Of a DNA stretch of 40,528 bases, positions 35,464-36,910 are shown in pieces. The DNA is from a virus. Both the position numbers and the translations under genes were made by a program. The stretch is taken from the IMG/VR virus record IMGVR_UViG_3300011918_000001, one strand, 5' to 3'. The notes beneath the pieces were generated by a model. It searched no databases and was not told the origin of the DNA. It saw nothing but the letters and a program-made list of their open reading frames with translations. Each line of letters starts with the position of its first letter. Within the stretch, counting starts at the first letter, position 1.

Positions 35464-35496
35464 CAAAAAAAGAAGCCCACCCCTTTCGGGGTGAGC
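35464..35496 (-). terminator. Intrinsic terminator ending the late operon (also faces the HNH islet)
   Basis: On the minus strand it reads GCTCACCCC-GAAA-GGGGTGGGC followed by TTCTTTTTTTG. Confidence 0.8.
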
Positions 35497-35520
35497 CTCT
35501 TCGTTGCCTCGCGCTATGGG

Positions 35521-35706
35521 TTACTTAGACCCACGACCAAACTCTGTAGCTGATGGGTCTAGCCACTTGAGTAGTGGACCAGCAAGGCCAGCCGCTGCTG
35601 CCATTGCTAAAGTCTTGAGGTCTGTCTCACCTGCAAGGTAAAGTGCTACAGCAGATGCTGCTGCTGCACGAAACCAAGTGAGCGCTAGTTGTTTGAATTG
35701 CTCCAT
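35521..35706 (-). CDS. Holin-like membrane protein (r1t-type)
   Basis: 61 aa with Ala-rich TM segments, AAAASAVALYLAG and AMAAAAGLAGPLL. It is the last gene of the lysis cassette. Confidence 0.5.
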   Translation of the reverse strand: MEQFKQLALTWFRAAAASAVALYLAGETDLKTLAMAAAAGLAGPLLKWLDPSATEFGRGSK

Positions 35707-35724
35707 TATATCCTCCTAGGGGAT

Positions 35725-36228
35725 TTAGGGTTTTGTACCGTGCAACTTGCAACAGGTACAAACTTCAGTCTTGTATGCCTTCTTAGCAGGCACGGTTTTC
35801 ATATTGGCAATGATTTGATTAACAACCTTTGGCTGGTTCATCCACCAGAACCAAGGACTAGTATCGTCACCATAACCATCGTTAATAGAAATGTGTAAGT
35901 GTTTTGTGTGCGGGTTGCTACCAGTATAAGGGCGATTTCCAAGGCGAGCCTTGTCCTTCGACCAAATCTTCTTGTTGAAAATAAGGTACTTAACTCGTTT
36001 GTCTTCTTTAAGTTTTTCGAATATGTCACTACAGTCAACCCCACTTTCGGGATCGTGCGTTAAATCAACTGCATACCCTGTGTTGTGGTCTGAGTTAGGA
36101 CTCTGTTTGATGTGCGCTGCCGATGGAAGCAATCCATCTGAGGCTTTCTTCCGAGAAGGTGATATCGCCGTGGCTTGTCGAAGTACAGCAATAGCGGCAG
36201 GTGTGGCTCGTTTCGCAACAGGTTTCAT
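35725..36228 (-). CDS. Endolysin, LAS/M15-type zinc peptidase
   Basis: SDHNTGYAVDL and HTKHLHIS supply the His/Asp/His zinc ligands. Confidence 0.8.
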   Translation of the reverse strand: MKPVAKRATPAAIAVLRQATAISPSRKKASDGLLPSAAHIKQSPNSDHNTGYAVDLTHDPESGVDCSDIFEKLKEDKRVKYLIFNKKIWSKDKARLGNRPYTGSNPHTKHLHISINDGYGDDTSPWFWWMNQPKVVNQIIANMKTVPAKKAYKTEVCTCCKLHGTKP

Positions 36229-36264
36229 TCATAGTTCCTTCTTTGTGAGTGGCTTACAATGTAC

Positions 36265-36642
36265 TTACGGTAACAAGATGATGCGGAAATCAGTAAACTC
36301 GTTAGTCCAAATATTTGTTGCAATAGTTACCGTGCCAGTTGTATTAGATCCTGTGTATGAAGTCTCATCTGAGCCATTAACAAAGATAACCTTGGCAACT
36401 GAACAGTCAACACTTATACCAGTTACGGTAACAGAGCTGACCTTGATTCCATTATTACGACTATTGCCGTATTCAAAGGAAGTTGTAACCCCATCTGAAT
36501 CACAAGCAACTGCCTCATTTTGTCCAACTGCTGCAAAGAATGGGCTGGTAATTACTAACGGTGCAATAGCATAAACAGTTCCTGTTAAAAGTGTTGTGCT
36601 AACTAAAACTGAAATGATGAAAAGTCTTTTAGTGTTTTTAAT
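36265..36642 (-). CDS. Secreted protein candidate (125 aa) with a non-canonical ATT start
   Basis: The hand-translated open frame reads IKNTKRLFIISVLVSTTLLTGTVYA-IAPLV... There is no ATG, GTG or TTG before the last few codons. GAAGGA lies 7 nt upstream of the ATT, and the ATT overlaps the upstream TAA. Confidence 0.45.
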   Translation of the reverse strand: MKNTKRLFIISVLVSTTLLTGTVYAIAPLVITSPFFAAVGQNEAVACDSDGVTTSFEYGNSRNNGIKVSSVTVTGISVDCSVAKVIFVNGSDETSYTGSNTTGTVTIATNIWTNEFTDFRIILLP

Positions 36643-36910
36643 TTTCTTTTCCTTCGTTATGCGATTGTAGGTGGTCTGCTACTCTTTGTTTAATTGCTGC
36701 TTGTTCAACCAATAAGGTAGTTATGTTATCATTGTTCTTTTGAGTTATAGGCAATATCTGTAACTTAATTAAATCGTTGAGGCTTTCACCACCATTAGGG
36801 CGCAGTTCCCATAGATAATGTTTAACCATCCAACGGAACAAAGCAGCAAAGCCACCTATTACTGTACATACGGCTACTGCTATTGCTGCGTAGTCTTCTG
36901 GTTGCATCAT
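36638..36910 (-). CDS. Single-TM membrane protein (holin-associated candidate)
   Basis: AAIAVAVCTVIGGFAALF followed by ELRPNGGESLNDL. Confidence 0.55.
   Translation of the reverse strand: MMQPEDYAAIAVAVCTVIGGFAALFRWMVKHYLWELRPNGGESLNDLIKLQILPITQKNNDNITTLLVEQAAIKQRVADHLQSHNEGKEN

Follow-up and report, generated by a model that had tools for sequence, protein, structure and literature searches.

Results

Genes at the locus

The window, that is the whole stretch of viral DNA analysed here (IMG/VR record IMGVR_UViG_3300011918_000001), is 40,528 nucleotides long. At the locus under study, a tail gene is followed on the minus strand by the gene for a small membrane protein, a short frame that is the subject of this work, an endolysin gene and the gene for a small, holin-like protein (Table 1). 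The endolysin had been called an M15 enzyme in an earlier interpretation of the letters of the DNA (hereafter, the sequence-only reading). Two motifs of M15/LAS peptidases, H-x6-D and H-x-H, are indeed present in it, yet its match to the Pfam VanY family stays below threshold (E 0.071).

Table 1. Features of the locus and the evidence for each (positions in the window).
Feature	Position	Strand	Basis
90-aa single-pass membrane protein gene	36638..36910	-	Hydrophobic segment from residue 9; stop overlaps ATT
Shine-Dalgarno (SD)-like GAAGGA	36650..36655	-	7 nt before ATT; usual SD type in this phage
ATT, proposed initiation codon	36640..36642	-	Aligns with the initiator Met of P0006, P0007 and P0008 and with the endolysin ATG
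Coding frame of the (predicted) exported protein, 125 codons	36268..36642	-	Open frame; homologues; dN/dS 0.10 against L004
Predicted signal peptide, residues 1-25	36568..36642	-	n-region charge +3; maximum hydropathy 2.49; VYA before predicted cut
Hydrophobic/Pro-rich linker with first invariant Cys, residues 26-52	36487..36567	-	Many columns invariant in the phage homologues; pLDDT 53-70
Predicted beta-sandwich with second invariant Cys (C80), residues 53-125	36268..36486	-	AlphaFold2 pLDDT about 97; six strands
Spacer: remnant of ancestral membrane-gene 3' end plus endolysin GAAGGA (36241-36236)	36229..36264	-	Match to L001 junction
Endolysin gene, LAS/M15-type motifs	35725..36228	-	phrog_32486, E 1e-88; weak matches to endolysin phrogs
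61-aa hydrophobic, holin-like protein gene, last of the operon	35521..35706	-	Conserved after the endolysin in L001 and L002
Strong intrinsic terminator	35469..35502	-	None between tail gene and this one

The small membrane protein has a conserved feature of its own. In four phage lineages the motif W-[LM]-V-K-H-Y-L-[YW]-E-L-[KR]-P-N stands right after the transmembrane segment, and the C-terminal tail of the protein is variable, with total lengths from 68 to 90 aa. Genes with this motif lie at 36638-36910 (-) of the window, at 2816-3022 of L001 and at 1474-1704 of L017. The protein matches only phrog_9869, a PHROG with no function attached. Placed after the tail gene, it may be a holin or a lysis regulator.

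An open frame with an ATT at its head

A codon-by-codon listing of the minus strand showed that the frame is open from 36669, just after an in-frame TAG at about 36672, to a TAA at 36267-36265. There is neither ATG nor GTG in frame between that TAG and the stop. The first canonical codon is the TTG at 36276, which is codon 123 of 125 and lies three codons ahead of the stop. Before the hydrophobic segment the only near-cognate codons in frame are ATA at 36660 and ATT at 36642, and further ATC and ATT codons occur inside the frame. From this ATT the frame counts 125 codons (36642-36268), with no canonical in-frame start upstream of the conserved N-terminus.

The last base of the ATT (36642-36640) is at once the first of the TAA (36640-36638) that ends the 90-aa membrane-protein gene on the same strand, which is the geometry of a reinitiation pair. 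The ATT is also preceded by GAAGGA (36655-36650) at a distance of 7 nt. This spacing is a usual one in the phage, where most genes have an AAGGA or GGAG core 5-7 nt before the start, although GAAGGA itself occurs 21 times on the minus strand, mostly away from starts. The endolysin ATG has the same GAAGGA at the same distance, and when the two junctions are aligned GAAGGA-7 nt-ATT-AAA falls column for column on GAAGGA-7 nt-ATG-AAA. The inserted gene thus stands behind an endolysin-type ribosome-binding site. The surroundings of the ATT are A-rich, the second codon being AAA, and the 80 nt around it are predicted to be unstructured and thus accessible (-5.5 kcal/mol, z -0.13, no more stable than shuffles).

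These data bear out most of the sequence-only reading, which had described a 125-codon minus-strand frame without ATG, GTG or TTG until its last codons, and an ATT placed 7 nt after GAAGGA and overlapping the upstream TAA. Of the extent it had given, 36229-36642, the upper end stands, but the coding part stops at 36268 and positions 36264-36229 are spacer.

Homologues and evidence for coding

A word-indexed search of 5.8 billion proteins returned seven homologues of 124-134 aa, 63-85% identical over their full length, the closest being P0002 (85%). These close homologues come from phages or metagenomes. A HMMER profile search of 1.84 billion representatives added 22 real members of 82-168 aa, all of them stand-alone proteins with their own signal peptide. 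One further hit, P0009 (4941 aa, 17 stretches), was discarded as a repeat artefact, each repeat giving 7.5 bits to the hydrophobic part of the profile. Homologous regions thus code for stand-alone proteins; the sequence-only reading had named non-coding or stop-bearing homologues as the outcome that would speak against it.

A scan with a narrower alignment located chromosomal copies in binned genomes of Nanopelagicales, Ilumatobacteraceae and Actinomycetales, among others. The one from Nanopelagicales shares 46% identity with the phage protein (E 1e-33), and a contig of high-G+C actinobacterial DNA carries one homologue with a good ribosome-binding site in front of it. A metagenome scan gave one distant cellular homologue only, a scan of a viral collection gave three loci, and a scan for the junction pattern recovered only the contig L003 described below. 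In the ESM Atlas the matches were to unnamed Actinomycetota clusters only. Against a phage record collection, tblastn with the protein gave no match, and blastn matched the endolysin gene only. No Pfam, NCBIfam or PHROG family consistently matches the 27 aligned members above threshold.

The neighbourhoods of the cellular copies vary and include a Pirin/HtrA-like pair, a solute-binding protein, a wax-ester synthase and Hsp20. As they are not conserved, the context gives no clue to function. The only cellular context seen to recur is that of two actinobacterial bins (L010 and L012), where the homologue has a Pirin gene on one side and a convergent gene for an HtrA-like trypsin/PDZ protease on the other, in a locus that adjoins a glutathione peroxidase gene.

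Compared with the homologue of phage L004, the frame has a dN/dS of 0.10, with dS saturated. The other seven homologues are all alike in 56 columns, and in these columns this phage's copy has a single private change, a conservative one; private changes in the others number 0-10 per sequence, so this copy falls within their range. By these comparisons the frame is a real, conserved gene for a small protein predicted to be exported, as the sequence-only reading had proposed, and the family evolves under purifying selection. That reading had also expected standard gene callers to miss the frame. In agreement, the collection of 5.8 billion proteins holds no called protein at least 90% identical to it, though two IMG/VR contigs carry the frame.

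Predicted export and fold

The protein begins with a KNTKR n-region and a 15-residue hydrophobic core, and VYA stands ahead of the predicted cleavage site. This pattern is kept in all 27 aligned members of the family, the call being a heuristic one (n-region charge, hydropathy, and small residues at -3 and -1). The mature part of every member has exactly two Cys, both invariant (27 of 27); in this protein the first Cys is residue 47. AlphaFold2, run with the 27-sequence alignment, gave a mean pLDDT of 85. It predicted a helix over residues 4-24, a linker of low confidence (residues 25-52) and a six-strand sandwich (residues 53-125). The textbook signal peptide and the beta-rich, Cys-containing remainder that had been read from the letters are therefore upheld by the conserved pattern and by the model.

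The fold is predicted with confidence, but it is a generic Ig-like beta-sandwich. Its best structural match (Z 6.9, rmsd 2.9 over 78 residues) does not exceed what common Ig/FN3-like arrangements give, Foldseek matches to PDB and BFVD had E values of 0.03 or worse, and a wide VIA-align search likewise returned only generic sandwiches. Two other identities were considered. A lipoprotein, or a lysis component resembling an outer spanin, is not supported, as the Cys of a lipobox is missing and none stands in or beside the signal peptide, and a SipW/TasA-type signal was dropped as no NCBIfam model matched.

Insertion between the membrane-protein and endolysin genes

Two related phage lineages, represented by five contigs, have no such gene: L001 and L002 (ct2KA10 genomes) and L017-L019 (IMG/VR). 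All five have the same order: a large tail protein, a small membrane protein, the endolysin and a small hydrophobic protein. In L001 and L002 a 68-aa membrane-protein gene meets the endolysin start by an ATGA overlap, and in L017 and L019 a 76-aa membrane-protein gene overlaps the listed endolysin start by 11 nt. In our own count, the junction of gene end and endolysin start in L001 agrees in 27 of 33 bases with the stretch of the window that lies just ahead of the endolysin gene and runs into it. The 90-aa gene and the frame have a G+C content of 0.35-0.40, and the flanks one of 0.42-0.46. These comparisons demonstrate, at the level of sequence, that the gene is an insertion between the membrane-protein and endolysin genes of a podovirus-like phage of freshwater actinobacteria.

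The homologue of L004 lies elsewhere, in the replication module of a WhiB-carrying actinophage, amid helicase, RusA, primase and sigma-factor genes. The gene is therefore mobile between modules and not bound to lysis. Thus, absence from syntenic relatives is joined by other contexts elsewhere, as in phage morons. The sequence-only reading had taken the gene as part of a lysis cassette; this view is not sustained, the gene being an insertion without counterpart in the relatives.

Neither a promoter nor a terminator of its own was found for the inserted gene, since promoter-like sites in the region were no commoner than in shuffles and the gene contains no terminator. One promoter-like site, at 36664-36692 (-) (TAAACA, 17 nt, TACAAT), just upstream of the SD-like element, was rejected as no better than chance. 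Because there is no terminator between the tail gene and 35502, the frame should lie within the late transcript.

The same junction in a second contig

A further IMG/VR contig, L003, comes from a different assembly and shares 96.9% identity with the window in the tail gene region. In all, 84 mismatches separate the two over 3071 aligned bases. L003 has the identical ATT/TAA junction and identical A-run lengths. In the frame the two contigs differ by two codons, both synonymous. In the 90-aa gene one change is synonymous and another non-synonymous; in the tail gene, 27 codon changes are synonymous and 9 non-synonymous. As the junction recurs in a separately assembled contig, a random assembly error is unlikely, and the junction must be older than the split of the two lineages. 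Two substitutions are, however, too few to prove selection on the frame since the loss of the start.

Through the tail, 90-aa and inserted genes, L003 and the window are about 97-99% identical. The L003 endolysin diverges about 180 nt into the gene, which indicates a recombination breakpoint inside it, and the holin-like and HNH genes differ (L003 3445-4100 against window 35521-36228).

Where the homologues start

In the alignment of the seven homologues, the short forms P0006, P0007 and P0008 have their Met exactly at the ATT column, and P0004 begins with L one residue after it. In the long forms P0002, P0003 and P0005 the start is 9-10 codons farther upstream, and the residue in this column is Val or Ile. 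The DNA of L004/L005 encodes a long form, whose ATG overlaps the TGA of the preceding gene, and the ATT column is occupied by an internal ATA. In this phage, the region that corresponds to the start of the long forms is the end of the 90-aa gene, read in another frame. The sequence-only reading had suggested checking whether homologues start with ATG at the position of the ATT; at the protein level, three of seven begin with Met there and another three start 9-10 codons upstream.

Two origins of the ATT are compatible with this alignment. Either the ATG of a short form changed to ATT, a change that would also have made the TAA of the upstream gene, or the insertion cost a long form its first codons. 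The long form of P0002 and the ATA of L004 suggest that the true start may have been lost at capture and not by an ATG-to-ATT change.

Discussion

On balance, we favour SD-directed initiation at the AUU at 36642, helped by translational coupling, as the way in which this frame is translated. This supports the main line of the sequence-only reading, which had suggested AUU initiation or termination-reinitiation. The frame would be carried on the late transcript, where GAAGGA would direct ribosomes to the AUU in its unstructured, A-rich surroundings. Ribosomes that stop at the overlapping UAA of the 90-aa gene could also re-initiate there. This is feasible because the P site needs to shift by one base only. 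Since AUU is a weak start, discriminated against by IF3, the output is expected to be a fraction of that of an AUG.

Published work gives a measure of what such a start could yield. In E. coli reporters, AUU with an SD gave 6-8 times less product than AUG (PMC3592434). At a coupled junction of the infC type, AUU reached twice its single-cistron level and one quarter of that of AUG, and an A/U-rich enhancer raised output about 3-fold (PMC3592434). IF3 is known to discriminate against start codons such as AUU (PMC2268962). The likely host clade may itself use starts of this kind. The infC gene of a Nanopelagicales bin (L014, 1444-2073) has no well-placed canonical start; an ATC stands 4 nt after GGAGG, and the alternative is an upstream TTG without SD. 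Nanopelagicales IF3 thus probably keeps an AUH start as in E. coli, which suggests that AUH starts are usable in that clade.

The strongest competitor, which the sequence-only reading had not raised, is that the frame is a start-less remnant, captured without its first 9-10 codons or deprived of its ATG, essentially silent and intact only because the event is recent. The position of the start in the nearest homologues (P0002, P0003 and P0005), 9-10 codons upstream, and the internal ATA of L004 at the ATT column both agree with such a loss. Moreover, the window and L003 are only two substitutions apart in the frame, so few that one would expect it to be intact in the absence of selection too, and this phage's copy is slightly farther from the outgroups than P0002 is. 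Nevertheless, both substitutions are synonymous, 55 of the 56 invariant columns are kept and the sole change is conservative. The ATT also has a full SD at the usual spacing, an A-rich unstructured context and an overlap with the upstream stop, features with which AUU reaches a considerable part of the AUG output in E. coli reporters (PMC3592434). In addition, two lineages that have meanwhile recombined elsewhere both retain the junction. We therefore regard a silent remnant as unlikely overall, though it deserves serious weight.

A programmed +1 frameshift near the end of the 90-aa gene, which had been raised by the sequence-only reading, would produce a two-pass fusion of about 214 aa joining the membrane protein to the beta-sandwich. 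The frame is indeed +1 to the upstream gene and open for 10 codons ahead of the ATT, the topology of the fusion is self-consistent, and a stop in the A site with an SD-like element upstream supplies the ingredients of a shift of the prfB type. In the prfB frameshift, the SD lies 3 nt from the P-site codon. Here the SD-like element is 6 nt from it, unlike prfB, and re-pairing of the P-site tRNA from AAU to AUU would have a central mismatch. The 22 real matches among 1.84 billion representatives (82-168 aa) include no fused homologue but only proteins with their own signal peptide, and homologues in other contexts are stand-alone genes. A frameshift is for these reasons very improbable.

Equally doubtful is initiation at the ATA at 36660. 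It is in frame, and the resulting 131-aa precursor would have an n-region nearer in length to that of the long forms, but no SD-like sequence stands before it and it coincides with no homologue's start in the alignment. Least credible of all is an indel, introduced by sequencing or assembly, in the A runs at 36643-36650, also suggested before: one base less in either A4 run would indeed fuse the 90-aa gene in phase with the frame, but no single indel yields ATG, GTG or TTG, no fused homologue is known among the 1.84 billion representatives, and L003, a distinct phage population about 3% diverged that differs in the 3' part of the endolysin and in the holin-like gene, has identical run lengths.

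If the AUU is used as we propose, we infer that the product would be exported by Sec and cut after VYA. The mature protein, with a predicted mass of about 10.5 kDa, would be a beta-sandwich of roughly 100 residues in the envelope, with one probable disulfide (C47-C80). As to its role, we can only speculate that it modifies the envelope, for example to block superinfection, rather than taking part in lysis. This guess at superinfection exclusion comes from the predicted export and from the early/middle placement, in the replication module, of the gene in another phage. It is also conceivable that the weak AUU is kept on purpose, to throttle or time the dose of a host-derived envelope protein before the endolysin gene. 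The output would then depend on how the upstream membrane protein is translated and on the condition of the host initiation machinery late in infection. We give this last idea little credence.

The kinds of elements involved are already known, namely a non-AUG start, a coupled overlap and a moron. The closest precedents for the start are E. coli infC (IF3) and pcnB, which likewise have no canonical start and an AUU after an SD. The infC start also lies a few bases from the preceding stop, and both de novo initiation and re-initiation contribute to its use (PMC3592434). The arrangement differs in that the AUU here overlaps the upstream stop (AUUAA), whereas that of infC lies 3 nt after it. Moreover, this is a phage accessory gene for a putative exported protein and not a translation factor, it is not known to be autoregulated, and AUU use is predicted from sequence.

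Coupled pairs of the ATGA or TAATG type are similar in being co-directional, with overlapping stop and start and the SD inside the end of the upstream gene. Here the overlap spans 5 nt, the start comes before the stop and is itself a non-canonical codon; in the relatives that lack the insert, the corresponding junction is a classic ATGA overlap. With phage morons the gene shares absence from syntenic relatives, a lower G+C content, residence in another module elsewhere and homologues on host chromosomes. Unlike them, it has no promoter or terminator above chance, and would depend on the operon transcript and on the endolysin-type SD at its left junction.

The protein belongs to an Actinomycetota family of 120-140 aa, predicted to be exported, that has in common the signal peptide, a CD-x-DGV motif, the second invariant Cys and the C-terminal beta-sandwich. 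Chromosomal members are 40-46% identical to this phage's protein. In the phage members, the linker after the cleavage site is more hydrophobic than in the chromosomal ones and nearly invariant. This unnamed family of small, presumably exported beta-sandwich proteins is common to freshwater Actinomycetota, including the abundant Nanopelagicales, and to their phages.

The finding is a catch in annotation and leaves the understanding of lysis or translation unchanged. If the AUU is used, the gene would add one phage example to a very short list of natural AUU-initiated genes. Should the weak start also serve to throttle the dose, a phage would be using start-codon discrimination as a regulatory device.

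Gene callers of the Prodigal type accept only ATG, GTG and TTG as starts. As a result, a conserved protein with a predicted signal for export is missing from protein catalogues in spite of its presence in two public viral contigs. The gap may be filled instead by a spurious frame on the opposite strand. At 35951-36574 (+) there is a TTG-initiated frame of 207 aa, antisense to the 5' half of the endolysin gene and to most of the gene described here. It is almost certainly a shadow frame, and its equivalent in L003 has 164 aa.
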